Of a DNA stretch of 56,566 bases, positions 28,865 to 56,566 are shown piece by piece (the first letter of the stretch is position 1; the number at the start of each line of letters is the position of its first letter). Source of the stretch: Proteromonas lacertae (taxonomy: Eukaryota); NCBI GenBank assembly GCA_002245135.1, contig NGBS01000874.1, positions 310,001 through 366,566 on the forward strand. Direction: 5' to 3'. The translations under genes and the position numbers were made by a program. The notes below the pieces were generated by a model. It saw only the letters and a list, made by a program, of their open reading frames with translations. It made no database searches and had not been told where the DNA came from.

Positions 28865-28934
28865 AGAATCTGAATTTCTAATTAATACACTTGTATTATT
28901 GTATTAATTTGTATTTGCGTTAAAACATATCATA

Positions 28935-35804: not shown

Positions 35805-37712
35805 ATGTCTCATGTATTAATGCCATTGTTATGTTGTTTATAGCATGTTAAATCTGGTAGTTTTGGATCATTCCGTCATTTAAGTGATAAGTTGAAAGGA
35901 GCAATGACACCTGAAGGTACTTTGAGAAAAAACAAATCTGAAAGGTCTCCATTATCTCACAAAGGTATTACAGCTGAGACTATGTATTGATTTTAAGATT
36001 ACTTATTAAATAGAAGGAATGAAACTTTTAAAATGTTTGATCAATTTATCATATGTGGGTTAAAAGCAGAACATATGGAACCAGAAGATGAAACAGGAAG
36101 ATATGCTCCAGTTGTCTTATCTCATTATCCAGTAGAGTCAGAAGTACCAAATGGTATAGAAAAATTTTGTTTCCCCAATGATATTTATTTATCTCCATGT
36201 AAACCGGAGTATTTCTAACTGTTATTAATTCTTATATTATATAGAGATGTAATAGCATCACTTGATCCTCCTGATGATATAGAGAAGATGTCCAAACATA
36301 TATTCATGATAAGCAATCATGAAGGAGAATCTTATGGAATTTGTTTAATCGAGTATCATGCTGTGTATGTAAAATCATTATCTAATTATTATCTTATACC
36401 AAGAGGCTATATATTCACCAGTTCCACTCCTTCGTTTTATACACATTATACTGTTTTATACAACATTATTGTCTTACAAAGAAATAAATTAAAAGTTAAA
36501 AGATTATCGTATGAATATATTTATAACTATTTAAATACAATAGAATTCTTCCAGAAGGTCGTGAAATCACCAATGATCATTTGAATAGAATCACAAACAT
36601 GTTTGACATGTACACATATGGTTTAAAACCATTACTAGAGCCAATTATAGAGAAATATCAAAAAGTAACACTTCCCAATCCAGGAGAAGCAGTAACATTC
36701 CAATTATTAAAAGAATGGCCAGATTTCAAGTTTTCTCGTCCTAAAGGTACTAATGACAGTATGATATCAGATCTGATCTTAGCTTACCGTGGATGGGAAT
36801 TGTTCCAATATTTTAGTGTAGAAAATATCTTATTAACTATTGGTTGTATTTTAACTGAACATAAAATCATTATTATTAATGATAATTTATATCAATTGAC
36901 TAATGCTGTTTTACAGTTTGTTGCTTTATTATTTCCATTTAAATGGACTACTAATACTATTCCAATACTTCCATCTGAATTATTTGTGTTTTTAGATTCA
37001 CCTGTTCCATATATAGCTGGTGTTACTGAATTTCCAGAAGTATAATGTTTTTTTTTTAATATATATATTATATATTTATTAGGATATTGATGATCCAGAT
37101 ATAGTAACAATTGATATGAATAAAGACCAAGTAAATATGTCTACACCTGATTATCATGTAGTAAAATTACCATTTTGTGATACATTATTCCATTCAGTTA
37201 CTCCATTATGTAATACAATTAGAACAACTGAGAATAAGAAAGAGAGAAAAGAAGCTTATTTTGCACTAGTAAGAAATATTAGAAAGTATATGAAAGCTTT
37301 AGATGAAACAGCTCAATATCTAAATAGAAATAGAAATCTATTAAAGTATATTATTATTTATTTATTGATATAATGTAGTACTGTTGATGATAAATTAATT
37401 GAAACTCCTCTAGGAAAAGTTGGTGAAACTGAATCATTTTTCTTTAATAGATTATTAGATTCACAATTATATACAATTCAAAAGAAAGGCACATTTTTAA
37501 ATATGTTATCAAAGAGTAAATTATTTCAAAAGAAACCTAAAGCGTGGAGTGAAAAACCAGATGCTGATGATGATATAAGCAACTTTACTCCTGATATGAC
37601 AATGACATTTAATAGTCCTCAAGCTGATATTATGAAGAGTATATATACTATTTATTTATTTATAGTTATACAATCTGGTATGGTAACTTTACCAAAAGAA
37701 TGGGAAGAGTAG
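35805..37712 (+). CDS. DENN-domain Rab GEF-like protein
   Basis: uDENN MFDQFIICGL..VLSHYP..IEKFCFP, YGICL, and cDENN LFQYFSVENIL..ILTEHKII..LLFPFKW..IPILP..FLDSPVPYIAG. Confidence 0.88.
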
Positions 37713-37837
37713 AAAATGTAATTAAAAATGTAAATTTATATATATAAATAAATAAATACTCTTCTATTTCATTATTATTTGTATGTATATGTGTTTTTAA
37801 AATTGCTAATCAAGTATTAATAAAATAAAACAGATAA

Positions 37838-38600
37838 TTATTGAAATGAGTATAATTTGTGTTGAATTATATAATTTAATACTTTATCACTTATTCTAGT
37901 CTTTAAAAACTCTACATCATTTGATTTTCTTATTTCTTTACATTCATTAAAGATTAAATTAGAAAAGATTATAAAAGATATGTTGAATTTATATTAGCTG
38001 TATTTAAATCAATTATCTGATTATTGTATGGATCATTATCTATTTCGTAAGTTTCTCTTTTCATAATAACAAAATGAACTGTCTTTAATAATCTTTCACT
38101 CTATATTATCATTATGTTAATATTTCTTTATACTTCTTTCCATAATCCTTTCAATATGTCTAGATAAGCATCAGATCCTAATAACCAACTAATTTCATAT
38201 TCATCTTTGTAATGAGATAATATATAATCTATTATATCTATTGATCCTATTCTTTTTGGCTAATTCATTTAAAATGATTAATAACAATACTTTCAATTCA
38301 GTCGGATTTTTCAAAAATTCTTCGTTATTCACATTAAACACGATTTCTTCTAAGTTAGATATTTTTATGCTGTTATGTACGATATCTTCATATTCAATCT
38401 TACACATACTCAATCTATCCTCATAACTTGCTAAATTCTGTTTACTATCATAAATATGTCTATAAACTGGAAGTATCCATATTTCATCAAAAGATTCTGC
38501 AATAAATATATTTTATACCTACAAAGTGTTCAACTGCTATTTTATGTGCGATGTGAGGTGGATTGAATGAACTTCCAAATATTAATAGCTTTTTCATCAT
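37838..38600 (-). CDS. nadD: Nicotinate/nicotinamide-nucleotide adenylyltransferase, bacterial NadD-like
   Basis: MMKKLLIFGSSFNPPHIAH (GxFxPxHxxH), DEIWILP, ASYEDRLSMC, WLLGSD, INST, and C-terminal VLNYIIQHKLY. Interrupted by short introns. Largely missed by the ORF track. Confidence 0.8.
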
Positions 38601-38769
38601 CAAAAAAGCAAAAGAAAATAATTGAAACGACTATATTTTAGAAATAGATTTAAAAAAGCATTTGATGATAGAAAGATGTTTTTCCAAACATTATAATATA
38701 TAATAGAGGAAAAGAAAACCATGTCTAGTTTAAAAATAAACAATTTATAGTAAAATCAATGTTTTTAGT

Positions 38770-39150
38770 TACATTTTGTAAACAATTTATATACATTTTG
38801 TAAACAATTTTACTAATTTGTAGTCAATTTAAGCTGATTTGTAGTCAATTTTAATCGATTAAACTCTCCAATTTAATATATTAAAAAAGTTAATATATTA
38901 ACTTGCTAAAGTGAATGTATCACTCTCTCTCTCTCTCTCTCTATAGGTTTTTTCTCTACAGATAGCTACGCCCTGGGGGTAGGAACAGATAGGAACACAC
39001 TATATTTATCTACTTTTCTACTGATAGAATATATTGGAATATTGGAATATTGGAATTATAATTATTTTTATAATACATGGTGGGATTTCACTAAAATTAA
39101 TAAAAAGGTGTTTATAATATAATAAAATTATAATAAAATTATAATAAAAT
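38770..39150. repeat. Non-coding repeat cluster at the left edge of the element (candidate terminal region)
   Basis: TTTGTA(AA/GT)CAATTT x4 at 38775/38797/38817/38838. Perfect 18-bp palindrome AAGTTAATATATTAACTT at 38887-38904. (CT)10 at 38923-38942. TAGGAACA x2, AATATTGG x3, and short ATAATAAAAT repeats. Confidence 0.75.
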
Positions 39151-39174
39151 ATACTGATGTTGTATTATAAAATA

Positions 39175-40056
39175 TTATAATGGATAGGCAAGAGGTGACT
39201 CCATATACATAGTTTCAATAACACCAGGTAATATACATTGTTTTTGATAACCTTCAATACTATCACTTTGTAAATGTAGATTAGGTTTATTATCATTTAT
39301 CAATATAAAATTTGTTGGTATATATTCTGGTGGGTATTGAGAATTATTATAAACTTGTAATGGGAATACTATACAATTACTACCATCATTAGGGTATGAT
39401 TGTATAAGTCTATTATAATAATCACTTAATATAGATTCATTATCATATAACTTTTTTAATAAATGATTATCATCTAGATAAATATCAATCAATTTTATAT
39501 CTGATCTATCATTATAAATTAATTGATGCATATTATAAATTTTGATTCTCATAAAATGAGTGAATAATGTAACTTTAATAGGTATCTGATCTATAATTGA
39601 TGATGTATTATCTGTTCTAGTAACTTTTACAGTCCATGTAGTATTTTGAATACTATAAGCCTGTGTGTTATATATATTTATTAATTTGATATGTTCATAG
39701 AGTGATTTATAATAACCATAACCTTCAGTATAATATAGTTCTTCATCAGTATTATAATCATTGACACCTATAACTTTATTAATATCAGATAGTATATCAT
39801 TTGATTCATCAACTTTATCTTCTATAATTTTTGTTTTTATATTAGTATTATCATTTATTGGTTCATTAATATAGGTTGATATATTATTACTATCTACAGT
39901 TATAATAGGTGCTGGTATTTGTATCTTTTGTGATATTGATGTTGCTAATGATTGAATATCTAGATCAATACTAATATTTTTTGATATCTCACTAGCAATC
40001 TCTTTTGTATCAATATCAATAATATTATTATTATTATTTCTATCACCAATAAACAT
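39175..40056 (-). CDS. Viral hypothetical protein, paralogue 1 (candidate fibre/spike)
   Basis: Probable start MFIGDRN at 40056. The C-terminal domain shares IPIK..F.HFM.IK.Y, YLD.N, YYN.L and FP motifs with the adjacent ORF. Confidence 0.6.
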   Translation of the reverse strand: MFIGDRNNNNNIIDIDTKEIASEISKNISIDLDIQSLATSISQKIQIPAPIITVDSNNISTYINEPINDNTNIKTKIIEDKVDESNDILSDINKVIGVNDYNTDEELYYTEGYGYYKSLYEHIKLINIYNTQAYSIQNTTWTVKVTRTDNTSSIIDQIPIKVTLFTHFMRIKIYNMHQLIYNDRSDIKLIDIYLDDNHLLKKLYDNESILSDYYNRLIQSYPNDGSNCIVFPLQVYNNSQYPPEYIPTNFILINDNKPNLHLQSDSIEGYQKQCILPGVIETMYMESPLAYPL

Positions 40057-40157
40057 AATATGATAAATTACAAATATAAAAAATATAAAATCTATTAAAT
40101 TCCTCAAGAAATTTAAAACTGATTTATATATACGTATTTATTATTATTATTATTATA

Positions 40158-40829
40158 TTAAAAGAATTCTGTTATATTTGTATTCATATAATCTGTGAAG
40201 AATGTCTGTCTTGGTATTGCTAAATAATCTTGATTAGGGTATTGATCAGCTACAATACATAATGTAGGTTGATTATTATTATTATTAACTAATGAATGTT
40301 TTATCTCATAATAAGGTCTATTAGTTAATGTATGATAAGTATCTTTAACATTTGTTGCTCTAATGGGGAATAATTTATTAGAGTATAATCCTAACAGTAT
40401 ATTATAATATTGTTGTAAATATTCATCTCTACCAGGTTCTGCTTTGATGATATCATTTTCATCTAAATATAATTGATAACCTACATATCCACTATAATTA
40501 CATGTAAATCCATCATATAATTTAATCTTCATAAAATGCTCAAACATTTCTATTTTGATTGGTATTTTAGTAATTTTAGTATCCCATACAGGTGATCCAT
40601 TAACTAAATATTTTCTTTTCATAGAATAAAATGTATGTTGTTTATGCAAACAATAAGGCCTTGGTATTATAGTACGAGGTATATCATTTACTACACTATT
40701 TATTGTATTACATACTGTTAGAATTTGATCTTTCACTTCATCTAATTTATCTGTAATATTATTTGTAATATCATCTACTAATTTATCTTAATCTAATACA
40801 TCAACTTTATTTCTATCCCCAATAAACAT
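40158..40829 (-). pseudogene. Viral hypothetical protein, paralogue 2 (candidate fibre/spike), with an in-frame TAA
   Basis: ATG 40829 gives MFIGDRNKVDVLD*DKLVDDITNNITDKLDEVKDQ.., in frame with ORF 40158-40736. TAA at 40788-40790. Confidence 0.6.
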
Positions 40830-40873
40830 TATTTTTATTAATGAATATATATATATTTATATAAAAATATTAT

Positions 40874-41634
40874 TTAAGAAACTTCAGAATGGTCTTCTAT
40901 CATAATATTAAAGTTTGCTCTAAAGACTTTTTTAACATTATCAATATATAAAAAATTGAATTGTGGTTTAGTGACTGCAAGATATAATTTTTTAAATGTT
41001 TCATACTCTGGGATCCATATATTTAATGAATTATATAAATCAAATAGATTTCTATTACTTAACCCATAAAATGTAAGACAATAATCAACTTGTGATCTAG
41101 CTGCTGGTACTATATCTGTTATATATTGACTGCTAATAATAATTTTGATTTTAAATGTCTATTTTCTTTCATCAGTACAGGTATTATTGTTGATGTTTTT
41201 AATTCTAAACTGAGATCATCAAAAATCATAATATGCTCAGCATATGAATAATTGTCTTTATCTACATCATTTATTTCTTTCATCATTTTCTCTACCACAT
41301 TTTCACCTGATTCTGGATCAATGAGTGAATCATATTCATCATAATCAATTTCGTGATAATCGAGTAACTCTTTGATTGAATCATATAACTTGTCTTGTTT
41401 GATAGTTCCCACAAAGAAGTGAACATGTTGTTTCTCTTTATATTTTGGATCCAAGACATGTCTTAATATATTATAGATGAGAGTAGTTTTACCACTATTT
41501 TTACGAGCAACAATAAAAATATTGCAGAATGGCTCATTGAAATAATCATAACCAACTATCTTCTTAGGATTGAAATCTTCACCACCATCTACTGGTTCAA
41601 CTTTTATGTTATTTATTTTTTCAAACTTAAACAT
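40874..41634 (-). CDS. A32-like (FtsK/HerA superfamily) genome-packaging ATPase, 1-nt frameshift
   Basis: Walker A IFIVARKNSGKTT and Walker B HIMIFDD. Adding one A in the run at ~41143 restores RHLKSKIIISSQY..ARSQVDY..FNFLYID, ending at TAA 40874. Confidence 0.9.
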
Positions 41635-41693
41635 ATATATATATAAGTAAAGTAAATAAAAAATAATAGAAATATTAAATTGTAATTAAATTT

Positions 41694-43244
41694 TTAAATC
41701 ACCTTCTCTACACCTCTAGCAGAGATGATTAACATCTTACCTGTTATGATATAGAACTTGTGATGATATGTCTTAGTTGCATTATTTAATACATTAGCTG
41801 TATTAAACTGACTATTACTTGCTTCGAATGTAATTTTTAAATCTCTACTCAAATCTCTACCTACTCTTTGTTTTATATCATCTAATACATCAGTCCCAAA
41901 ATTTAATATATCGAAATAATGTTTAAAGAAATCATTATATGTATGGCATCTTTCATAAAATGTACCTTTAATAATAGGATATAATTTTTCATATGTTTCT
42001 AAATTTCTTACATAAAGATAATCTGGCGTACATGGTGTATCATTTATTTGCCATTTAACTCTATCTTCATTTGTATCAAAAGGAACTATTTGCCTATTCC
42101 AACTTTCATTTTCATAACAACGATATATTATATATTTCACATATGGTCCTATGCTACTATTAATAGTAAAATTGTAATTGAATTTATTATCACCTTGAAT
42201 ACTATCTTTTACTAACTGAACTATATTAAAATCAGTGAAATCTATTCCATGATGAGTAACATAATTAATTGTATTTGCATTACACTGAGTACTTTTGTTG
42301 TAAGCAATATATAACTTAGGATTTCTTATATTCACTTTTAAATATTTACTTACTACATCTTGAATTATTTTTTCATTATGTTCTTCTGCATCATTATTCA
42401 TATGCGCAGGATTTTTACTTGTATTTATAATCCAATTATTTATTCCATTAAAGGTTATTGAAACATAAATTGTTTCACCAAAATATATATCACTTTTACA
42501 TGATAATATAGTATTAAATAAATCACCAAAATGAAAACAGCAATGTTTATTAATAGACAATTCTCTTGCATTTGCACCAGCAACAGCATTTGTAGGAATA
42601 AGTTCAACATTCTTTGCAAATACACCATAAGTAGGGTGTACGTTATTGTTATTACCATAGGTGCATAATAATAGATCAGTTAATTCATTTGATCTTCCTG
42701 CATATAAACCATCTACTGATACATGACATCCATCAAACACTTCTAAATGATATTCAGTTGATTTAAGATCATCTGGATAATGATAAGCTAATTGATGCAT
42801 TAAGTCTCTATATTCATTATAACTTTCGTCTATATCACATAATACAGTTCCTGTTTTATTATATACTTTAACTGAATTAAAATTCATTGTATTTCTTAAT
42901 CTAATAGCCCATGCATCATTAAGGTTTAATAATGCTATATTCGCTAGCATATCATTATTTAGTACAGGTTTTATTGTCCAAGGATTATTAGCAATATCTG
43001 TAAAATCTGCTGTATAAACTTGAGGCTCAATGTGTAATGTAAAATCAAGATATGATTTTGCTAAGTTCATACAGCTATCTGGTGATAACTCAAATGTTAT
43101 AGTATCAGTTGATGCTGTGTAACTTAAATTCACTACATCTCTTGTTTGGTTTGGTGTAATAGGGATGTAAACATAATCAGGTATTAATGTTGGTACGACA
43201 GTATTATGCACTTGTGTTTGAGGTATTGTTGTTATGCTACTCAT
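41694..43244 (-). CDS. Major capsid protein (double jelly-roll, Polinton/PLV type)
   Basis: Intact 516-aa beta-rich ORF between the penton and the ATPase. N-terminal ITFELSPDSCMNLAKSYLDFTLHI and FNSVKVY..DIDESYNEY resemble Polinton/PLV MCP motifs. Call rests on motif resemblance and synteny. Confidence 0.78.
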   Translation of the reverse strand: MSSITTIPQTQVHNTVVPTLIPDYVYIPITPNQTRDVVNLSYTASTDTITFELSPDSCMNLAKSYLDFTLHIEPQVYTADFTDIANNPWTIKPVLNNDMLANIALLNLNDAWAIRLRNTMNFNSVKVYNKTGTVLCDIDESYNEYRDLMHQLAYHYPDDLKSTEYHLEVFDGCHVSVDGLYAGRSNELTDLLLCTYGNNNNVHPTYGVFAKNVELIPTNAVAGANARELSINKHCCFHFGDLFNTILSCKSDIYFGETIYVSITFNGINNWIINTSKNPAHMNNDAEEHNEKIIQDVVSKYLKVNIRNPKLYIAYNKSTQCNANTINYVTHHGIDFTDFNIVQLVKDSIQGDNKFNYNFTINSSIGPYVKYIIYRCYENESWNRQIVPFDTNEDRVKWQINDTPCTPDYLYVRNLETYEKLYPIIKGTFYERCHTYNDFFKHYFDILNFGTDVLDDIKQRVGRDLSRDLKITFEASNSQFNTANVLNNATKTYHHKFYIITGKMLIISARGVEKVI

Positions 43245-43333
43245 TTATATGTATATATGTACGTATGTATATTTTTGGTAAGAAAAATGTTAATACACTC
43301 AAAAAATAAAATTTAATATATATATATAAGTAT

Positions 43334-44302
43334 TTAATAAAGTATTATTTCAAATTGAAATGATATATTAGTTATATCTATAGCAAAACCATCTTCATTT
43401 GATAAGTTAATTTTCATTTTTTGATAATCATGAAATTGCATTTTTTTAGTTGACCAATCTATCTGTGGGTTAACCCATGTTATATTTGTATTTGATATAT
43501 CAGTTACTGGTATATTTGCTAAAACATTTGAATTATCACTATTATTAACCCAACTACTTCTTACTTGAATTACATTACACCATATAAGTGATGGTGTTAA
43601 TAAAAATTTATGATCATAGTATTGTTCTTTTGTGCCCCAACTAAGTGATGGATTACTATTTAATATAATTAATTCATCATCTATTACATTACTACCTAAT
43701 AACCTACCAAATAGGTTAGGCATTCGCATTTTTATTTTTGTTAGTAAATAATTACCAAAGTGAGTATATATTGCACAATATAATTTTAATCTATTCGTAG
43801 TCTTATCATACCAGTCAAATAACTTATCTCCCGCTTGAGGATGTAAGAAATAATTAAAACGTTCATCTTCATCTCTTTCTTTTACAGGCACAATATTTTC
43901 ATGTACTGCTACGCTAAATCTTAATTCAGTTAACATACTCTTTGTTAAATAACTTAAAAACTCTTCACCACTATAATGATTTTGTGGTATCTTTATCTCT
44001 AATGTATTAAATTTTGGTCCGCTTAATATTACACTTGGATCATTCAAGGGTTTTATAGGATCATTTACATGAAAATATTCTATATCAAAACATACTTTTT
44101 CATTAACATCATTTTGAATAGTGTATATGTTATTGTTTGATATTCTTGCTATGTTTAACGTAATATATTGATGCTGTTCAGTTATCACAGGTGTTGATAA
44201 ACATTTAGTATATATATCTGACTCTGATTCAATAATATCAGTTGATGATAAAAAAATTGATCTTCTATGACCTAATTTATTATTATCACTCTTAGGTTGC
44301 AT
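43334..44302 (-). CDS. Minor capsid protein (penton, single jelly-roll)
   Basis: SIFLSSTD at the N-terminus, IKIPQNHYSGEEFLSYL, IQVRSS..NVLANIPV, and C-terminal MKINLSNEDGFAIDITNISFQFEI match the penton pattern of PLVs and virophages. Confidence 0.8.
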   Translation of the reverse strand: MQPKSDNNKLGHRRSIFLSSTDIIESESDIYTKCLSTPVITEQHQYITLNIARISNNNIYTIQNDVNEKVCFDIEYFHVNDPIKPLNDPSVILSGPKFNTLEIKIPQNHYSGEEFLSYLTKSMLTELRFSVAVHENIVPVKERDEDERFNYFLHPQAGDKLFDWYDKTTNRLKLYCAIYTHFGNYLLTKIKMRMPNLFGRLLGSNVIDDELIILNSNPSLSWGTKEQYYDHKFLLTPSLIWCNVIQVRSSWVNNSDNSNVLANIPVTDISNTNITWVNPQIDWSTKKMQFHDYQKMKINLSNEDGFAIDITNISFQFEIILY

Positions 44303-44378
44303 TATATATATATATATATATATATGTGAATGTATAAGAATTAATTAAATAAATAGTTATTTCATTTTTTCTCACATA

Positions 44379-47338
44379 ATGAACAACCGTAATAGAATAC
44401 GTAGAGATTTATTAAATTTTGATGATGATGAAGGTACAACAGTAGATAATACAAATAGCGATAGTAGTAGTAATAATTCTAGCAATAATGCTGTTAATAA
44501 TAATTCTACTAATAGTAATAATGATAATGATGATGATGATGAAACAGAAGAAGATACTGATTCTGATAATATAAGTAATGCAGATGATGATGAACGTCTT
44601 ACTAATAGAGATTTTGAAGATATCATTTATGATAATGCTAAAAAATTAGCAAGGTTTAGGTTAGATGAAATAATTGATAAAAGACTTATACCAGTAGGAT
44701 GGCCTGATCATGAGTTTAATAGAATTTATAATTTATATGATGTGCATATGAAGTTGTTTAATTGGGGTAAATCATTATATCAACACGGTCCATTTTCAAG
44801 AAATAAACCATTGCATCAATACAGCTATGAATCAAATAACGATGTTAAAATAATAATTGATAGATTAAATAAAGCAATTGATGAATTATGTATTGCTTCA
44901 AATTATATACCTAGGAATAATCCATTTGTTGTGCTTCATCCTAAAGAAAGATTGAATGTTGTCAAATTAGAAAATAAAAGAATAAGAAAAATACAAAAAG
45001 AGACAAAGGATCATACTCATCCATTTAATGAAGAAGATGATAAAGATATATATGATAATAATAATTATGAAGCAAATACATCAGCACCAGCAAATTCGTC
45101 ACGTAATGTTGTAGCACGTCAATCAGTTCAACCACATGCACAACAACAGCAATCACAAGATAATAATAATGATGATAATGATGATGAAGAAGATGATAAT
45201 GATTTACCTGATGATCCTTATGAAGATGATCAAGGTAAATTTTTACCTTTAGAAGATAATTCTATTCATGCTCAAACAATTCAAGTATATAGTTCAAATG
45301 CAATAAATAAGATAAGAATTTTTATAAATAAGTTACTGAAAACAAAATTTTGGTATATAACAAATCAACAAGAAAGAACTGCATTTTCAATAGCTGTATT
45401 AATATATAATTGTGTAACAGAATTATTTTACTTAAGCAAATATAGATTACCTAGTTTAAGAGATGGGCATACATATCCTGAACCTGCTGATTATGATAAA
45501 AGAAATATAATGAGTTTACCCTCATCTATTTCTAATGGATATCGAATGAATTATATAGCAACAATTCAAAAAATATTAGAGTCAAATAATATAAGGGAAG
45601 GTCAAAGATACACAAATCATTATGCAGATGCAATTATGTTCAATATGAATAGATTAGCTCAAAAGAAGAAATTTATTAGTTCTTATCCACCACTATTACC
45701 AGTAGAAGAAGCATTATCTAGAGATTATAAAGGAAGATATCAAGTTAGAAATCCTAATAGAGGTAATGTAAATGTAAATTTTAGAAATAATGTTCCTCAA
45801 CAACAACAACAGCAAGAAGAAGAAGAAGAAGAATTATCTCCATTATCATTTCAAGATAATCAATCACAAAATAGTTTTGATGATAATGATGATTCATACA
45901 ATCTTAGTTATGATGATGATAATATAGCACAACCACCGCCTATTGTTTCAAGTGATTATAATAATGATTCACCAAGAGAGGTATCACCAGTATATTCACC
46001 AATAACACCACCATTAGCTCCTCAACCTCAACCACGTCAACAACCATTACCACCATATCTTCCTCCATCATCAAATTATCATCCACCTCCTCCTCCTCCC
46101 ACCTCCTCCACCACCATCAAATCATCCACCACCGCAACCACCACCATCATCACAAGTTCCTAATATAGTTCATCATTTTAGATTAAATGGTACAACAAAT
46201 CAAGTTCCTTATACATCTGTTTTTGCAAATCAGAATAATAATAATAATAGTGATGATAATAATGATGATGATGATGAAGAAGAAGCTACTGATACAGATA
46301 TTAGTGTTAATGATAATGATGAAGGTAGTGATACAGATGTTTCTGAAACAGAATGGAATGATGATTATATTTTCCATTCACTTAAATTTAACATATGATC
46401 CAAATAATAGTAATAATATAAATTATACAAAAATTGCTGATTTAAAACCTCCTACATTTGTTTTATATAGATTTAATGATGAAGATCCTAATGTAGTAAA
46501 TAAACCTAAAAGGAATGTAAGAGCATTTACTCTGAAAGAATTATTACGTTATTATGCAATAGATTTATTTACTAAAGTAACTTATATATATGATATACAA
46601 GGCTATATGAATAATAAATTTAAAAAAGAAAAGATTGTAATAGTAAAAGATAATGTTCCTTATGATAATTTTAAAGAATATGTAAAAAAATTCAAAGTTC
46701 AATTACCAATTACTACACCAAATATATATCCCTTTTATACATTAGATAAAAAATCAACTATGCTAAGATTTTACGGTTATGACTATTATAATAATATTTA
46801 TACTGAATGTCAATTAAGATTCTTTAATAATAATTTAGCTAAAGCTAAAGAAGATTTATATTTGAGATGTCCTTTAATTAATATAATTGATGATGATGAA
46901 GCAATAGAAAGAGAAGTTTTATTTCCTAAACGATATAGAGTAAATTGGGGTGAACAACCTGGTCAATCTGAAGAAGAAAAAAGAATTATATGTGGAACCT
47001 TAAGTATTATTCCCAATTATTATGAAAATGATCAAGAATGGTATATTTTAGATGATTGTCAAACACAAATAAATGATTATTTATTAGATATGCCTAATGA
47101 TGGTATTTATAAATATTATAACTATCCATTTCTATGTAAATTTAATGATAAAGTTGTAGTTGTTATACATAGATCACTTAAAAAATTCGTATATATTTAT
47201 AATGAAGTAAGACATCCTGAGCGTGTAACAGATAATGATAATGTATTAGCTCATACTGAATTATATGGTAATGGTAAAAGAAGAAGAGATCATTCGTTAC
47301 ATAACGGCTATATATATAAAAAAAGCAAATATTTTTAG
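44379..47338 (+). CDS. Large viral hypothetical protein (~985 aa if two frameshifts are corrected), Asp/Asn/Pro-rich tracts between globular segments
   Basis: ORFs 44379-46163 and 46187-47338 are bridged by a third-frame segment (..PPPSSQVPNIVHH..DDDDEEEATDTD..). No introns. No recognisable catalytic motif. Confidence 0.55.
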
Positions 47339-47369
47339 TTTCAATTTTCCAGTTCAAAATAGCTTAAAA

Positions 47370-47777
47370 ATGTATATTTTCGATAAAAAGTATAAGTATT
47401 TTATTAAAATATGTTCAAAAGAGCAATTCAATAATATTCTTGATCAAGTAGATAATTTGCTCTGTGAAGCTAGTAATTATTATGATTTTTGGGAATATCA
47501 ATCAGTTTTTAAGAGAGAAGAAGTTAGAGAGATAGTAAGAAAGGCTTGGAAGAAATTACAAATTTGTAGAACTGTGAATGATGAAAGACATTTTATAGAT
47601 TCAAATAGAATTACATCATTAGAAGAAACATATCTACGTTTAGAGGTTAAGATGAAAACAAATGATGCATGGCATTCTATAATTGGTTATCATTGGGATA
47701 GTGATCAACCTGGCTATATAGAAGAACAGAAGTTTTTAAAAACAAAATCAACATGTATAGATAATAATAATAATTAA
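47370..47777 (+). CDS. Viral hypothetical protein (~135 aa)
   Basis: ATG at 47370 (MYIFDKKYK..) lies within ORF 47265-47777, just after the previous stop, and converges on the protease gene. Confidence 0.5.
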   Translation: MYIFDKKYKYFIKICSKEQFNNILDQVDNLLCEASNYYDFWEYQSVFKREEVREIVRKAWKKLQICRTVNDERHFIDSNRITSLEETYLRLEVKMKTNDAWHSIIGYHWDSDQPGYIEEQKFLKTKSTCIDNNNN

Positions 47778-47793
47778 TATATATATAAAATAA

Positions 47794-48360
47794 TTATATC
47801 ATCTTAAATTTATTTTGTAATAGTCTTGCTTTAGCTTCACCTTCAATTGTATTAAAATTAGTAGCTTCTTTAAATGAATTATTATATTCTATCACTGATA
47901 TTAAAAATAGAATTGCATGATAGCCACATCTTGCACTATCAACTCTTTGATGTTTCACTCTATTAATTTTTATTTGATATAATTCATCAGGGTATTTCTT
48001 ACAGCTTTGCATTCTCTTATAAAACTTTTTTATTTCTTTTGGTTGCTCACCAAAACTATCATAATATAATATCTCTCTTTTGTCATTATCAATAATTAAA
48101 CTAACCCAATGACCAATTTTCGATCTCTTATCAGTTGTTTTATTTGTGCTTAATATAACACACCACTTATTACAATCTTTATATTTATCTATATATTGTT
48201 TTTCATTCCACAAATATACACCTTTAAAATACTTGTTAGTTTTAGGAAAGAATCTCTTTATGATTTTAATTATATCATGATTTGATATAGCATCTATTTT
48301 AATATCATCACTAATATATGAAGTATTACCAGCACTATAATCATTATAGAATAATCTCAT
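47794..48360 (-). CDS. Adenain/Ulp1-like (clan CE) virion maturation cysteine protease
   Basis: GHWVSL (His), YYDSFG (Asp), HQRVDSARCGYH (Gln and Cys) occur in adenain order. Intact 188 aa. Confidence 0.92.
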   Translation of the reverse strand: MRLFYNDYSAGNTSYISDDIKIDAISNHDIIKIIKRFFPKTNKYFKGVYLWNEKQYIDKYKDCNKWCVILSTNKTTDKRSKIGHWVSLIIDNDKREILYYDSFGEQPKEIKKFYKRMQSCKKYPDELYQIKINRVKHQRVDSARCGYHAILFLISVIEYNNSFKEATNFNTIEGEAKARLLQNKFKMI

Positions 48361-48442
48361 ATTTTTAATATATTTAAGAATTTAATTAATGATTATTCAT
48401 TTAAAGAATTCTTAACGTATATATATATATTTATATATAACA

Positions 48443-49225
48443 ATGGGTAAATTTAAAGATTGGTTAAAAAAATCAAAAATTCTATCAAATGCAGCTAAGT
48501 TAATACCTTTTGCTGGACCAGCAATTGGTGATAGTATTGAGAATATGGGTTATGGTAGACGTAGAAGAAGAAGAACAGTTAGAAGAACAAGAAGAAGTAG
48601 TGTAAGAAGAAGATGTCCTTTAAGAAGAAGAAAGACAAGTGCTATTACTTTAACTTGTAATTGCATAAAGGTTAAACAAGGAAGAAGAAAAGCTAGAAAA
48701 ACAAGAAGAACTAGAAGACATAGATTTACTAGTGATGGTAGATTAATTAGATCAGCAGGTTTAGGTAGCTGGTTAAAAAAAGGAATAACAAAAGTTAAAG
48801 ATTTTGTGACTTCTGACAAATTTAAAAATGGTATTGAAAAAGCAAAAGAGATTAACAGCACATTGAGAGAGAAGAAGTATATAAGCAATATAGCAAGAAA
48901 AGCTCGTAATGTTGCTAATACATTAGGTTTTGATAAAGTTGCTGATGTTGCTGATAAAGTATATAATACATCATCTAAATTCGGTTATGGTAAACAAAGA
49001 GTTAAAGGTGGTTTAAGATATAAACAAAATGGTGCTGGTTTAAGAAAACTAATTGCAAGAAGAATGCCAGTTAGTAATGGTGCAGGTAAGAGAAGAAAAC
49101 TAATTGCAAGAAGTTTGCCAGTTAATAATGGTTTAACAAAACCATGTGGATTTAATAAAAAAGGTATTTATAATCCACAAGTTGATTTAGAAATTTTTTT
49201 AGCATACAGTGTTAAACATAAATAA
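48443..49225 (+). CDS. Arg/Lys-rich candidate virion core protein with repeated GxG/GG motifs
   Basis: Protamine-like RRRRRRTVRRTRRSSVRRR. Motifs MGYG, SAGLG, FGYG, KGG, NGAG x2. Divergent from the protease gene. Confidence 0.65.
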   Translation: MGKFKDWLKKSKILSNAAKLIPFAGPAIGDSIENMGYGRRRRRRTVRRTRRSSVRRRCPLRRRKTSAITLTCNCIKVKQGRRKARKTRRTRRHRFTSDGRLIRSAGLGSWLKKGITKVKDFVTSDKFKNGIEKAKEINSTLREKKYISNIARKARNVANTLGFDKVADVADKVYNTSSKFGYGKQRVKGGLRYKQNGAGLRKLIARRMPVSNGAGKRRKLIARSLPVNNGLTKPCGFNKKGIYNPQVDLEIFLAYSVKHK

Positions 49226-49303
49226 TAAAAAATTAAAAATATTATTCATTCATAAAATTCTTATATAATTTATATATATATATATATATATATATTATAA
49301 AAA

Positions 49304-49873
49304 ATGAATAGTAATAAAAATCAAAAAGTAAAAATTACACGTGATTATTATCATAGTGATTCATCTGATGAAGATGATTATAATACACCATTAGCACAAG
49401 ATATGAGTAAGACTGATAGAGAGATTGCAGAGTTATTATATAGGTTAAATAAAAATGAAGATGAATTGGTAAATGATAAATCTGAGTTTAATGAACTAGA
49501 TGACATTGATAATAAAAATTATATACCAACAAGGCAATCAGTCAAAAAGAATATAAAATTAAGTGAAGAAGCTAGATTACAAAGAATTAAAAACTTAGAG
49601 AAAGCTAGAGCAACAAGAATGAAAAATTTATATGAGAAGAGAAGGAGAGAAAAAGCATTAGATAATTTGAATATTAAAGAGGTTGAAAAGGATTTAGATG
49701 TTGATGAGACATGTACTCTTGATACAATTAAAAAACCTGTTAATAAAAAGAAATGCATTAAAGTACCTGGTAGTGATGATCCATTTAGTATAGGTGATAA
49801 AAAAGATGGTTTAGAACCAGTTCCAGAAGATGCTAAGATGCCTGGTGATGATGCAATATTACCAATATATTAA
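49304..49873 (+). CDS. Viral hypothetical protein, charged/coiled-coil
   Basis: Intact 189-aa ORF preceded by a (TA)n tract. Helical segment RLQRIKNLEKARATRMKNL. Confidence 0.6.
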   Translation: MNSNKNQKVKITRDYYHSDSSDEDDYNTPLAQDMSKTDREIAELLYRLNKNEDELVNDKSEFNELDDIDNKNYIPTRQSVKKNIKLSEEARLQRIKNLEKARATRMKNLYEKRRREKALDNLNIKEVEKDLDVDETCTLDTIKKPVNKKKCIKVPGSDDPFSIGDKKDGLEPVPEDAKMPGDDAILPIY

Positions 49874-49948
49874 TTTATTATAATATTTTTTATTATATGT
49901 TTTCTTAGTGGTTTTATATATATATATATACATATATACATATATAAT

Positions 49949-52900
49949 ATGAGTAATAAAAAATCAAAAAATAAGTTATCTAAAAAGATGACAAATTTAT
50001 TAATGAAGAGAATATTAAAACGTATTAGACGTAGAGCAAAGGTGAAGAAGTTTAATAAACATGTTAAAACTAATAGTGAAGCAGAACTTATAAAGTATTA
50101 TATGAATAGTGTTGAAAGAAATAAAGCAAGAGAGGAAGCATTTAATGAATATAATCAAAAAGAATATATGCAAGGTGTAAATCAAAAAAGAATTAATAAT
50201 ATGGATGAAGCAATGGAACATATTATCAATAATATTGAAAGATATAGAAATCCTGATTCAGATAGGCTAAAGAAAAATTTTGAAATGTATCAAGATGCAA
50301 TTAGACATGGAAAAGCAAGTGCTACAGATGCAGATAAATATTTAGGACCTATTGAACAATCAGTTATGATAGGTGATGAAATTTATCATCATGATCCTAA
50401 CTTTGTTTATACTAGAAATGCACATCATAAACCAGGTGATGATGTTTATAGAAGAGGTCCTCCAAAAAGAGCTTCGATATATTGACCTGATGATGGTGAT
50501 GATGGAGATAATGGAGGTGATGGAGGAAATCATAGAGTTAGAAATCCATTACCAGGACCAAATATACATGGTCCACCACAAGTACCAAATGATGGAAATA
50601 TTCACATAGTTCAAGACGGTGGAGGTGATAATGGTGGTATAGTAGTGAACCCACCACCTAGAGTTCCACCTCCTAGAGGTGGTATAGTAGTGAACCCACC
50701 AGTATATAGACATCCTCCACATAGAGTAGTAATAGTTAACCCTCCACCTAGAGTTCCACCTCCTAATGTAGTAAACCCACCACCACCTAGTGGTGATGGT
50801 GGTGTTAGAATAGTTAACCCCCCGCCACCTATAGATGTACCATCTAGAGTACCTGTAGTGAATCGAATTCCTTTAGAACATAATCCATCATCACCAGTGT
50901 ATGAACCAGCAAGAATAGTTAATCCACCAGGTATATCTGGAGGATTATCTATTCCAGAAAATAATGTTCCATTAATAGTTCCATCAAGAGATAGAAATTC
51001 AACAGATAATATACCTTTACCTAACAGTAAACCATCATCACCTATTTATGAAAGAGAAAGAGAAAGAAGTGCATCACCAATACCAATTAATGATAATGAT
51101 GATGGTGAGACAAGATATAATTTTAGACGTGAAAGAAATAGACCTAAAAGATATGAAGATGAATTTGTTGCTTATGATGGAACTACATATATTCATGAAC
51201 CATCAAATCGAGTATTAGAAAGTACTAGTCCTCAAATTTATGTAAATAAACCTCACAAGAAAAGAATATTATCTAAAATTACACCACATGAAAATATAAA
51301 TCAATATAATAGAAGATTATTAACTCAAAATAATTATGATGATATAGTAATTGAAGAACCACCTCCACCACTACCACCATTAGTAACAGATAATAGTACA
51401 TCACCAATACCAGTTAATGATAATGATGATGGTGAGACAAGATATAATTTTAGACGTGAAAGAAATAGACCTAAAAGATATGAAGATGAATTTGTTGCTT
51501 ATGATGGAACTACATATATTCATGAACCATCAAATCGAGTATTAGAAAGTACTAGTCCTCAAATTTATGTAAATAAACCTCACAAGAAAAGAATATTATC
51601 TAAAATTACACCACATGAAAATATAAATCAATATAATAGAAGATTATTAACTCAAAATAATTATGATGATGTAGTGATTGAAGAACCGCCTCCACCACCA
51701 GTAATAGATAATAGTACATCACCTATTACAACAAAATTAAGAACAGTTAATGATACATCTAATATAAATTCATATGTAAGATCACCTAGGCATTTAAGAA
51801 TTATAATGCCTTCTAGTAATGATATGCAATCATTAATAGTATCAATAAATGATAGAGCACAAAGATCATTGGTTAATAATGGAACAAGTAATTTATTATA
51901 TGATAATAATAATAATTTATCAATTCTTAACGATTCTACTGATTTTATAAATTCTAATAACCGTCATCTTAATATAAATATGGGAAATAATATAGATATT
52001 GATCCGCTACCTCAAAGTAATGATAATGAAGAACATCAAAGAGAGATAGAAAATAGATTAAATGCTGAGATACAAGAGAGAGAAAGAATAGAACAAACTT
52101 GTAAAGAATATTTAGCAGAAAGAGATAAAATTAGAAATACAATGGCTGATTATCAGAATCGAATATACAATATGACAGCAATAAATAATAATTTATTAAA
52201 TAAAATATCTTCTCTTGAACAAGAAACTGAATTACAAAATAAATATAATGCTTTAGCTGCTCATTATGAACATGTAAATAATCAATTAAATGAACTACAA
52301 AATAGATTAAATGTACCACATGTTAATAGTAGCACAAATACTATACCAGTTAGTGAAAATGATGAATCAACTAGTCCTATTCCATTAGATATAAATGATC
52401 AATCAACTAGTCCTATATCTATTTCATTAAATACTCAAGATGCATCAACGAATACAGATAAAAATTTAGGAAAAAGAATATCTGTTAAATCAAAACGATT
52501 AAATAATGATGATTATATAGTTGATTGGAATAGTACAGGAAAATATAAAGATAAAAAAGGTGAAATAAAACTTATAATGAAAGATTCAAAATCAGATAAA
52601 AGAAGAAATGTTTTACACAATAGAAGAAAAAATAAAAGATTAGATACAGTATCAACTAAATCAACGACAACACCTATTCAACAACCTCCGCCACCAACAC
52701 CAGTACCTATTCAACAACCACCACCACCAACACCAACACCGGCACCTATTCAACAACCATCACCACCAACAACAACACCAACACCACAAACACAAGTACA
52801 AGTTCCACCATTAAATTTATCTAAAGTAGAAGAGTCAACTTCACCAATACAAAAAGCTAATACTTCTCAAGTACCTTCAATTAACATAAATGAAAAAGCT

Positions 52901-53764
52901 AAACAAATGCTTAATAATTTCTTTCATGGTGCATCTAAAGCAACTGAAGTTATAAAAAATATGAGTCAAGGAACAGTTAATACTATATCAGATATATTTC
53001 ATACAATAAAAAATGTTACGGAAACAGAAAAAAATGAATCAGAAATAAAGAAGAAACAAAAAGAATTGGAATTATTACAAGAAAAACGTGTAAGAGAAAA
53101 ACGTGCAAGAGATGAAAGAGCAGCAAAAAGAGAAAGATTAAAAGAAATAAGATTAAGAGCAATTGAAGAGGCTGAAAAATCAGAGAGGAGAAGAAAAGTA
53201 GCACAAATAAATGAACCACCTCCACCATTACCAGGAAGAGTATTAAGAAATAAAGATGAAAGACGTAAAAATTCGAAATATTATAATAATGATAATTTAG
53301 TTGATGCAAGTGGAAATGGAACATATAAAGATATTAATGGTAATGAAGTTACAATTACAATTGGTAAAAAAGTAAATAAACCTGTTAAGAATAAAAGAAG
53401 AAAGATAAATATTACATTAAATAATGATAATAATAATAATCAACAAAATGAAGTACCAATTACAAATAATAATAATGAAGTACCAGTTGCTGTAACTGAT
53501 AATGAAAAAGAAAAAGATTATGATGATGATCCAGATTCAATTATGGCTGTAGGCTATAATACATTTTATCGTCCTATTAGAGAAGATGCTGATATAAATA
53601 GACCACTTACATCAAATGCAATTCACTTTAGAGATAATCGAGATAGAATTGATTACTTCCAAATGATTCAAAGTAATGGTATAGATCCTGCTAGAGCACG
53701 TTTAAGTGATGCTGATTTAAATAGATATTATGAATGGCTTAATAGGTCACATAATAAAAAATAA
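49949..53764 (+). CDS. Very large Pro-rich/coiled-coil viral protein (~1270 codons) interrupted by one in-frame TGA
   Basis: ORF 49949-50485 ends TGA at 50483-50485. The same frame continues (CCT GAT GAT GGT..) without another stop into ORF 50645-53764. Confidence 0.65.
51074..51720 (+). repeat. Near-identical tandem duplication, period 327 nt, inside the large viral ORF
   Basis: TCACCAATACCA..GAAGAACC starts at 51074 and again at 51401. The translation duplicates SPIP.NDNDDGETRYNFRRERNRPKRYEDEF..VIEEPPPP. Confidence 0.95.
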
Positions 53765-53826
53765 TTGATATATTTATATTTTTTATTTAGACATATATAT
53801 GATGTTTTATATATAAATAACATAGA

Positions 53827-54990
53827 ATGAATGATTTACAACATAAAATTTATGAATTATATAAAGACTTTGGTTATTTAAATAAGAATGATTTCATAAA
53901 TTTTAGTGTTGATGAATTATCATCAAAGTATTCAAAACCTGATATAACAAAAACTGCTAAAGAGTTAGTTGAATCAAAACCAGATTACCAAGTAGCAGTT
54001 AAAAAAAAGAATAAATATTAAATATGAAATAGAAAAGATACCAGGTTCATATCAAATGGATATTATATTTTTTAATAATACAAAATTACCTTTTTTATTT
54101 ATAATTGAAGTAGTTAGTAGAAAAGTGTGGATATATTATGTTAAAAGTAAAACTGAATCAAGCGTATTTCCAGTTTTTGAATCATGGTTTTATCAAGGTC
54201 TTAAACATGTTAATGAAAATGCTAGATTTGTAGGTTCTATTTGATGGATCAAGAATCTGGTGTAATATATGGTAATAAGTTTTTGCAGCTATTTAATAAA
54301 AATAATATTAGATTTATAATGAAAGATACTGATGAACATAATATAATGAAAATATTAGATAGCGCAGTAAGAACTATTAAAAATATGTTTTATAGATACT
54401 TGAATACTTTTGATGATAAAGAATTTGAAAAGTTAAATAATCTTAATGGTCTAATTGAAATAGTTAACACTGTAGTATTATATTATAATTCAAAACCACA
54501 TAGCTCACTTAATAATTATACACCAAATGAAGTACATGATGATTTTGAATTACAAGATTTGTTTTATAAAGAATCAAGACAAAGAAATAAAGAACGAAGA
54601 TTAAAAGATACTAAATTGATAGAAATGAATATGTTAGAGTTAAAGAGAGAAGAAGAAATAAGTTAGATAAAAGTAGATATTTTAATGATAAAGTTTATAT
54701 GATTGATAAAAGAACACCTTTTTCTTACTCATTAAAGAATATAGATGGATCAATTCCTTCTGAATTTAATCCTAAAAACCTTGGTTTATTTAAATTTAAA
54801 CCATATGAATTAAGAAAAATTAAAAATGCTATTAAAACAAAGGGTAGATTTAGGTTAAGTGCAATAAAAAAGCATAAATTCAAACAAAAATGATAGTGAT
54901 AAAAATGATAAAGTAACATATATTGCACCTAAAAATATAAGAAAGAGTTCTTTTGGTAGAACTATAAGACCTAATTCAAAATATACATAA
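53827..54990 (+). CDS. Retroviral-type (rve) integrase of the Polinton/virophage type, split by about four frameshifts
   Basis: Reconstructed order: PGSYQMDIIF..LFIIEVVSRKVW..KSK / MDQESG..F / ILDSAVRTIKN..YNSKPHSSL..TP / YVRV..YSLKN..FKPYELRK / SFGRTIRPNSKYT*. Confidence 0.85.
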
Positions 54991-55149
54991 AATAAAAAAT
55001 TAAACTAACTATATTATTTAATATTTTGATTTTATTAAAATAAGCTTGAAATCATCAAACATTTCATTAAAAAACGGTTTCTTTCGATTTTGAAATCATT
55101 TTTTATTTTTCGACTTTCTCAACACCTTATTCAATATTTCTTTTTAAAA

Positions 55150-56566
55150 ATGAGTGTACGTGTTAAACATACTTCACCTAGAGATAATGAAGATAATTCT
55201 TCATCAAAGACATTTAAAAGTTGTTAAGAAGAGTATATAAATACATCATTAAATATATATAGATGAAAAGAAGACTCAACAAAATGAAGAAGCATTAGCA
55301 CTACCTTCATCATCGAATTCTAATCAAAAAACAGGTATCTATATATATATTATATTATATTATATTATATATACATAGCTTTTGTGCATAGATTTAACAG
55401 AAAAAGCATTAACAGCTTAGATGTCAAAGAATGGATTAAAATTAGAAGTATTGCACAAAACATTATAAATTATTGTGATGATAAAATCAAATATATTCAT
55501 TATAATAACAGTCCAAGTTTATTATCCTTATCATCAGTAATTAGATATGCTAGTTCATTAAATTTATTCTTTGATGCAGTTGAAAAGAATCCTCAATACA
55601 TAAATGGTGAGGTACTAAAAGATATTGATGAAGTCTTATTAATTAGCCCATATTCTCTAGGTGACAATTTTACAACTGATAATAAGTTATTAGGTGGTGT
55701 GAAAAGAAAAGCTAATATTGATGATGATGATGAAGATGATGATGGATGTATTAAACGCAGTAAAAGATGTAGAAAACTAACACCTAAATCAAATATTGGT
55801 GGTGAAAGCATTAAAGTGCATAAAATAAATACTACTATCAAAAAGCCTTTAAAGTCTGAGAAGAATTTAGTTGATGATGCATTAAAAAATAAGGAGACTG
55901 ATTGGATTAATGATAATGATGTTTTTGAAGATTTTGATGATGATAATGAAGTTATCAAAATTAATGTATCAAAACCAAAGGTAAATATAAAAAAAATAAA
56001 ATTACACCAGTAGCTAAAGTTATTACTGATGAAACTAAAATTACACCACCAGCTAAAGTTATTATTAATAAAGATACATTAAAGGAAATGGAAGACAATA
56101 TTAACAATGATAAAGATTATTATTACAGCAAACATAATTGGGCTAATCCCAAAAAATTATACAACCAACACTTAAACCGATATTACCTAAAGTGAATTAT
56201 GAAATTGCTGAACCACCACCAATAGTTCATGAAAAACCAATTGTTAAAGAAATAGCACCATCATTACCACCTAAACCTTTAGTTAAGATTGCACCTAAAC
56301 CTTATGGTACAATCATTAAAGACAATACTCCACCAGTTAAAGTTACACCACAAGATCAGTATGATGTCTTTAAAAAGAAGGTTGAATATCAAAATGAATT
56401 AGAAAAACAAATTGCTTCATTGAAAAAGACATATGTGCAACAGTTAAGAGATGAAAACCCTAATCTCAAGTTTGATGATGATGCAATATTGTTGATGTTG
56501 ATATTGATAATGATATGATTTCAGTCCAGATGAAAGTATATTTGATGACTTTCTTAAATAAAAAAA
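55150..56566 (+). CDS. Intron-containing hypothetical gene (probably host), frameshifted, runs to the window end
   Basis: GT-AG introns at 55233-55262 (30 nt) and 55335-55378 (44 nt). The second joins the upstream exon in frame to ORF 55384-56013. A Pro/Lys-rich continuation follows in ORF 56192-56518. Confidence 0.5.

Follow-up and report, generated by a model that had tools for sequence, protein, structure and literature searches.

A probable one-ended Polinton-like provirus in the genome of a likely Opalinata gut protist

A block of viral genes between spliced host genes

The 56,566-nt stretch of DNA analysed here (the window) contains a likely endogenous Polinton-like virus (PLV) in a block from ~38.75 to 55.0 kb. 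An earlier note on the window had proposed such an element, and the proposal is supported by the fold predicted for its major capsid protein (MCP), a probable penton, an A32 ATPase, an adenain-type protease and a likely rve-type integrase. The left end of the element, its virion genes with the genes beside them, and its integrase are as follows.

38750..39170, no strand: non-coding left end, likely the surviving terminus (repeats, palindromes, fold)
39175..40056, minus strand: paralogue 1, 293 aa, 32% identical to paralogue 2
40158..40829, minus strand: paralogue 2, interrupted by an in-frame stop (40788-40790); N-terminus in common with paralogue 1, ATG checked
40874..41634, minus strand: A32-like packaging ATPase with one frameshift near 41150; collinear with its relative P0011
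41694..43244, minus strand: MCP, 516 aa, predicted double jelly-roll, intact (AlphaFold2 (AF2) fold, Foldseek, VIA-align)
43334..44302, minus strand: probable penton (minor capsid protein), 322 aa, intact (Atlas and profile match)
47794..48360, minus strand: adenain/Ulp1-type maturation protease, intact (Pfam C5 and C48)
48443..49225, plus strand: Arg/Lys-rich protein, 260 aa, with Gly-x-Gly motifs (composition)
53827..54990, plus strand: rve-type integrase in five pieces with four frameshifts (weak family matches)

The viral block is distinct and real. The earlier note had described ~16 kb of intronless sequence after ~38 kb of intron-rich host genes, and intron counts bear this out, with 2 intron-like stretches in 15.8 kb of the element against 27 in the 38.6-kb host part. 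A leave-one-out codon model assigned 15 of the 16 pieces of the element, and all 16 host pieces, to their own class. Host introns are 28-46 nt long and of the GTAT..TAG type. Of 18 host open reading frame (ORF) junctions picked by hand, 14 were brought back into frame by a single tiny GT..AG intron, the other four not being bridged. Such introns bridged none of seven element ORF junctions and were thus ruled out as the source of the breaks in element genes. CpG is depleted in the host part and the element alike (observed/expected 0.30 and 0.40). In the assembly, spliced host-type genes lie ~150-160 bp from either end of the block. The minus-strand cassette of penton, MCP, ATPase and paralogue pair that had been described earlier runs from 44302 down to 39175, and the MCP, penton and protease ORFs are uninterrupted, as had been claimed.

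The predicted fold of the major capsid protein

Sequence search found nine relatives of the MCP (29-52% identity) and profile search ten, all of them from Logan. Against a library clustered at 50%, the MCP profile matched 401 proteins at E<=0.001, 13 of which reached E<=1e-30. The same profile had no match among PDB sequences, and neither the window MCP nor 25 relatives matched the virophage MCP Pfam families. The family was also absent from the viral contig collection (153 pattern matches, none confirmed) and the metagenome contig collection (225 pattern matches, none confirmed) that were searched. For 37500-45500 a search of sequencing runs listed none, a result that points neither way.

Structure prediction was performed on an 11-sequence alignment using AF2, giving a model with pLDDT 63 and pTM 0.68; a single-sequence fold (pLDDT 33.8) was set aside. 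The best Foldseek matches of the model in the PDB were capsid chains of an iridovirus, mavirus, Sputnik and Paramecium bursaria chlorella virus 1 (PBCV-1), at E 7e-10 to 2e-8 and 7-10% identity, and a viral structure library gave the same picture. VIA-align superposed residues 14-516 on a PBCV-1 capsid chain with Z 17.1 and an rmsd of 3.5 over 311 aligned positions. The earlier note had named a double jelly-roll at 41694-43244 as the check on its proposal, and both comparisons of the AF2 model find one. The predicted structure thus identifies the MCP as a double jelly-roll capsid protein of the type found in the Polinton-like supergroup (Preplasmiviricota).

The other virion genes

The ORF directly upstream of the MCP had been called a penton, and as a probable penton it stands. 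Its top cluster in Atlas was the Sputnik minor capsid protein V18/19 (0.98), a lead only, given low recognition. Its C-terminus scored 9.9 bits, a weak match, against a profile built on 17 ORFs of related loci that are penton-like and were chosen by an N-terminal pattern; none of 488 scored shuffles reached this value, the best scoring 9.4.

The ATPase aligns in two frames to P0011, an intact relative of 254 aa, the identity being 88% on one side of a single break and 80% on the other. Intact 254-aa relatives are 83-88% identical to the window copy, and two of the seven scanned, P0011 and P0016, pass the Pox_A32 cut-off. The identification as an A32 ATPase is therefore upheld; the earlier note had not mentioned that the window copy is split by a frameshift. 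ATPase queries of the viral contig collection found nothing, and a search of the phage collection with P0011 was likewise empty.

The protease scores above the Pfam cut-offs for Peptidase_C5 (E 2.6e-7) and C48 (E 3e-7), and the H-D-Q-C residues previously noted are present as H84, D101, Q138 and C145. Its query of the viral contig collection gave two confirmed stretches and no loci. The Arg-rich protein, also previously noted, contains 28% Arg plus Lys and has GYG twice. Its composition and Gly-x-Gly motifs suggest that it is likely a DNA-binding core protein and a substrate of the protease, presumably comparable to the adenovirus core proteins. Two of its stretches, rich in Trp and Lys and amphipathic in appearance, offer a candidate analogy with membrane-lytic virion peptides. 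The paralogue pair shares 32% identity over 105 aa (E 2e-11), and paralogue 1 matched no Pfam or PHROG family.

A motif shared by the upstream regions of element genes

In 8 of the 12 element genes the ATG is preceded, at a distance of 14-48 nt, by the motif WTTCTTR, which TA repeats usually follow. The genes that carry it encode the MCP, the penton, the protease, the Arg-rich protein, both paralogues and two further ORFs described below (ORF 49304 and ORF B). Dinucleotide shuffles gave a mean of 0.57 genes with the motif, and none of 5000 reached eight. It was found in 16 of 253 AT-rich host ATG windows, and three times in the antisense strands of the same 12 element windows. These statistics are inflated because the motif was defined after viewing the same sequences. 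WTTCTTR-(TA)n is a candidate late promoter, a role suggested by its position. Promoters of the helper virus are reported to be shared by Phaeocystis globosa virus virophage (PgVV), Sputnik and mavirus in the accessible text of 10.1101/2022.07.28.501842.

The integrase and the element ends

The DD(E/D) integrase of the earlier note is supported by weak matches arranged in the expected order, and its gene proves to lie in five pieces, which had not been stated. Two consecutive pieces match Pfam rve (E 8.5e-4) and rve_3 (E 0.017), and there are further matches to IS30 (E 0.004) and transposase PHROGs (E 0.012); the rve, rve_3 and IS30 matches fall below the curated cut-offs. The pieces at 53827-54990 are likely an rve-type integrase, an assignment that holds more weakly than those of the other hallmark genes. 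The searches run gave no link to the integrase of the aquatic locus L008 (see below) or to PDB sequences.

The non-coding left end begins ~150 bp upstream of the host nadD gene. It contains tandem repeats of 11 and 21 nt, palindromes of 14-18 bp, a (CT)10 run and repeats of 8 and 11 nt, and single-stranded DNA of 38720-39020 is predicted to fold with z -4.0, none of 100 shuffles being as good. Rfam found nothing. Polinton termini carry simple repeats such as (CT)n; the (CT)10 run, at 38923-38942, is oriented as expected of a right end.

At the other side, the last integrase piece ends at 54990 with its own stop codon and is followed by an ordinary spacer of ~160 bp and a spliced gene from 55151. 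That the element runs off the window end was rejected, since the last gene carries host-type introns. A search for a terminal inverted repeat (TIR) gave a best inverted score of 29 against a mean of 29.4 for 200 shuffles, and none was present among the longest repeat pairs. Direct repeats joining both ends were not found above shuffled controls. Thus, it is likely that only one end, the left (38750-39170), resembles a terminus.

Replication genes

Strict patterns for DNA polymerase motifs found none in the six frames of the window. The sole strict Walker A match was the host PIF1, the viral ATPase having a variant outside the pattern. Element ORFs matched no polymerase or helicase family in Pfam or PHROG, DNA_pol_B_2 included. 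A tblastn search of the window with six replication-type proteins of the relatives gave nothing at E<1, a weak test, as the L008 integrase also missed its counterpart in the window. Only two ORFs, the low-complexity ORFs A and B, are long enough to encode a polymerase. A DNA polymerase B of the protein-primed type (pPolB), a criterion of Polintons/Mavericks proper, was thus not found in the window and may have been lost by truncation.

Broken genes

The earlier note had missed several breaks: one frameshift in the ATPase, four in the integrase and in-frame stops at 40788-40790 and 50483-50485. Seven of the 11 listed breaks fall within the final 2.6 kb, and the right-flank gene accounts for three of these. 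Consensus error near the contig end is likely for part of the damage, because the breaks cluster there and the flanking gene is also broken. Homopolymer runs that were unusual at the 5% level were found at only three of nine frameshifts, and the idea that all frameshifts lie in homopolymers was rejected on this count. The two in-frame stops are not of the indel-error type. The suggestion that the insertion is recent or still competent is not supported: in the assembled sequence both the ATPase and the integrase gene are interrupted, the searches turned up no replication gene, and there is no right terminus.

Aquatic relatives carry replication genes

An ATPase alignment scan of metagenomes found at least 50 related loci; the results given for them hold among the matches listed. 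Their ATPases are 27-47% identical to P0011. The MCP profile matches 17 ORFs in 16 of the 50 loci (E<=1e-3), and 11 ORFs match the window protease, which is 33-38% identical to proteases of the aquatic relatives. Ten PLV-type aquatic contigs (L001, L003, L004, L008, L011, L021-L024 and L044) have ATPase, MCP and protease in common with the window. L008 encodes a protease, ATPase, penton, MCP, rve-chromo integrase and pPolB, and in L021 pPolB stands beside MCP, ATPase and protease; in both, as in the window, the penton is directly upstream of the MCP. The MCPs of L008:2839-15665 and L021:2634-11762 match no Pfam family. Unlike the window, these contigs have either pPolB (L008, L021) or, in L003, a DUF5906 helicase-like gene. 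Their protease carries a long fused N-terminal portion, and the upstream motif is rare, standing before 5 of the 100 ORFs of 11 loci among the 50. The scan for replication genes covered 30 of 300 ORFs of the relatives. Since L008, L021 and L003 carry one, the wider group would normally have a replication gene.

An 18-sequence MCP tree separated the window protein and eight Logan proteins from nine locus MCPs, with 100/100 support. The tree has long branches and a midpoint root, and it omits P0005 and P0010 together with locus MCPs that were short or near-identical.

Remaining ORFs and host flanks

The other ORFs of the element and the two flanking genes are as follows.

37840..38600 (3' end approximate), minus strand: nadD-like host gene (nicotinate-nucleotide adenylyltransferase), left flank; tiny introns, host-like codon usage
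44379..47338, plus strand: ORF A, large, acidic and Pro-rich, in three pieces; one clear frameshift near 46095, last piece maybe a separate gene
47370..47777, plus strand: 135-aa open reading frame
49304..49873, plus strand: 189-aa charged ORF with the upstream motif
49949..53764, plus strand: ORF B, large, low-complexity; 178 aa up to an in-frame TGA (50483-50485), beyond which the frame stays open for 1092 aa
55151..56566, continuing past the window end, plus strand: right-flank spliced gene, probably host; introns 55233-55262 and 55335-55378, own frameshifts

ORF A matched no Pfam or PHROG family. Past the TGA of ORF B there is no ATG for 440 codons, and the stop could be a nonsense change, an error or a site of read-through. 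ORF B also contains a 327-bp (109-aa) tandem duplication (51055-51681, 97-98% identity), which is either recent or an assembly duplication.

The first 38.6 kb of the window is densely packed with eukaryotic genes at 27.4% GC, among which we recognised DENN, RPAP1, PIF1, EB1-like and EGF-repeat proteins, rmlD and nadD. For nadD, the NCBIfam NadD matches (E 2e-4 to 0.04) lie on one exon and under the cut-offs, and the N-terminal motif and intron were read from the sequence. This gene (37840-38600, tiny intron) and the rmlD-like gene (8494-9309) are of bacterial type in a protist and are possibly old horizontal transfers. The EB1-like gene (22357-23343) has a tail of ~20 repeats of a QYDENGNPI-type unit, and its frame shifts near 22450 without a canonical tiny intron. 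A 355-codon frame at 28908-29975 with weak helix-turn-helix matches (MerR_1, CENP-B_N) is possibly a transposon remnant. In the right-flank gene the frame stays open over the second intron, and GC at third codon positions is 0.157, compared to 0.140 in the host part and 0.086 in the element.

The Blastocystis downstream motif TGTTTGTT occurs seven times in the host part and not in the element, as raw counts. The earlier note had suggested a Blastocystis-like host, which fits in general; the GC content is nearer that of Proteromonas lacertae (27.0%) than those of the Blastocystis genomes listed in the accessible part of Lind 2025 (PMC12129017; 21.5-23.1% or 39-55%). Taken with intron size, for which Lind 2025 likewise supplied the figures, and the capsid family, GC content suggests that the host is likely an Opalinata gut protist, either Proteromonas or a Blastocystis from cold-blooded animals.

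Discussion

We consider it probable that the window holds a Polinton-like provirus, likely of a gut protist of the Opalinata, from which the right end and the DNA polymerase have likely gone, leaving a one-ended copy. The copy is probably a decaying member of a high-copy family, with some of its frameshifts likely to be consensus errors near the contig end. Because the right end and polymerase are likely lost, it could be replicated or packaged only with help from intact sister copies. In the complete virus, the rve integrase would insert a linear genome, as its family suggests. On activation the virion genes would be transcribed from the WTTCTTR-(TA)n element, the putative promoter, and the DNA would be copied by a polymerase or helicase such as those found in the aquatic relatives and not in the window. 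The MCP, from its predicted fold, and the penton may form an icosahedral shell, into which the A32 ATPase would pump the DNA, while the protease would mature the Arg-rich core protein.

Several points weigh against loss by decay and truncation. The clustering of breaks near the window end suggests poor consensus there, possibly a misjoin near 55 kb, and for the six frameshifts outside unusual homopolymer runs neither decay nor error is demonstrated. Many stops in such elements are reported to be assembly artefacts in the accessible text of Bellas 2023 (PMC10120064). The tblastn negative is weakened by the failure of the L008 integrase to find the window integrase. The codon log-odds of the right-flank gene, -2.4 bits, is ambiguous, so that this gene is host-like only by its introns and third-position GC. 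Integration is read from the assembly, and the high copy number from capsid hits tabulated for Proteromonas lacertae.

A rival reading is a complete, intact provirus whose breaks are consensus errors in a multi-copy repeat, the polymerase and right TIR having been removed by a misassembly at ~55 kb. The clustered breaks strike the flanking gene as well, ATPase relatives at 83-88% identity are intact, the MCP, penton and protease genes are clean, and artefactual stops are documented in the same text of Bellas 2023 (PMC10120064). We regard an intact provirus as unlikely, given that the two in-frame stops lie far from the window end and that the integrase runs to a stop codon of its own, after which come 160 bp of ordinary spacer and then a spliced gene.

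The element could instead be naturally free of a polymerase, either as the virion-plus-integrase segment of a split genome or as a satellite using the replication and transcription of a helper virus. All virion genes and an integrase are present beside no replication gene that we could find, and the motif precedes 8 of 12 starts where 0.57 are expected; use of helper promoters is reported for virophages and PgVV (accessible text of 10.1101/2022.07.28.501842). The left-end hairpins are likewise consistent with this, as terminal palindromes accompany non-pPolB elements in Halocafeteria according to the accessible text of 10.64898/2026.07.28.741278. A true segment should retain matching ends, though, and none were found; the assembled genes are interrupted, the choice of motif was made with the same sequences in view, and no helper virus of the host was identified in this analysis. 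We judge a polymerase-free element to be distinctly improbable. The wider proposal of a gut-protist lineage naturally without polymerase, dependent either on a second genome segment or on a giant virus of Opalinata, as yet undescribed, acting as helper, is a comparably long shot; if it were true, WTTCTTR-(TA)n before the capsid, penton, protease and core genes would be the late promoter of the helper.

A chimeric assembly, in which a free virus of the culture was joined to a host contig, is very improbable: the junctions do rest on the assembly and related viruses exist as metagenome contigs, but two misjoins would be needed, both falling between genes, the genes are broken, low GC and CpG depletion are common to element and host, and the family is apparently recorded on many Proteromonas lacertae host contigs, in some cases at positions past 100 kb (Bellas 2023, tabulated entries).

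Comparison with known systems

The element is not a surprising find, as endogenous PLVs are common in protists and this capsid family has apparently been tabulated. The tables of Bellas 2023 (PMC10120064, Tables S1, S3 and S4) give 285 MCP hits for Proteromonas lacertae, all in one cluster marked new and some recorded >100 kb along host contigs, and none for ten Blastocystis assemblies. The criterion for that cluster is an MCP identity of at least 25% over 30% of the length. The MCP printed there (450 aa, 400 letters of it compared) and the longer window MCP (516 aa) with its relatives have motifs in common along their length, as compared by eye: FTINSSIGPY is exact, CMNLAKSYL stands against CINLSKSYL, and LNFG is shared. 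That protein, too, was recognised only by structure prediction, with a PBCV-1 hit. The earlier note had called the lineage probably divergent; it is divergent, but this was over-rated, since by eye it appears to belong to the MCP family already tabulated from Proteromonas lacertae in Bellas 2023, and Proteromonas lacertae PLVs are named in the accessible text of a 2026 preprint (bioRxiv 10.64898/2026.07.28.741278). The same preprint text describes fragmented copies and copies without TIRs in Halocafeteria.

The Bellas 2023 entry, in its tabulated form, consists of MCP hits alone, without a gene map, promoter motif or replication module. A gene map, the upstream motif and the tie to polymerase-bearing aquatic relatives were absent from the literature searched; figures, bioRxiv supplements or the Proteromonas lacertae genome paper may hold a map. 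The value of the window lies in a gene map for a lineage otherwise described by capsid hits, and in that tie. The candidate late-promoter motif could also be used to seek a helper virus in gut metagenomes. Virus-like particles seen in Blastocystis by electron microscopy either measured 30 nm and were associated with dsRNA or reached 200 nm, in the accessible text of PMC12835684. These old particles remain unexplained, and with such sizes and the dsRNA association a link to the element is not shown.

Group definitions were taken from the accessible text of PMC7805220, PMC11161782 and 10.64898/2026.06.19.733378. Virophages (mavirus and endogenous mavirus-like elements, EMALEs) share with the window an MCP, ATPase and protease and conserved upstream motifs, and their penton and, in mavirus, rve integrase have a probable and a likely counterpart there. 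The window MCP is 8-10% identical to those of mavirus and Sputnik, with VIA Z 13.6-14.0, under several capsids of nucleocytoplasmic large DNA viruses. The Blastocystis hominis MELD virus, as described in the accessible text of Starrett 2021 (PMC8502044), resembles the window in its related host group, integrase and divergent virion proteins and differs in having an adintovirus-like PolB; a 'MELD virus sp.' protein was only 12% identical to the window MCP model. Polintons/Mavericks (Polintoviricetes, including adintoviruses and Gosseviruses) have in common with the window an MCP, an A32 ATPase, an adenain protease, a size of 16 kb and, as is likely for the window, a penton, an rve integrase and integration into the host. 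They differ in pPolB, TIR and target-site duplication, none of which was found in the window, where the element ends are not defined to the base. By eye, the window MCP has no recognisable likeness to the Gossevirus GKS1 MCP as printed in Bellas 2023. In its mode of life the element would resemble a Polinton, inserting itself into a genome, coding for a virion and using a protease to mature it. Membership of the Polintons fails here on pPolB and TIRs, and the element is best filed as an endogenous PLV of the Proteromonas lacertae type.

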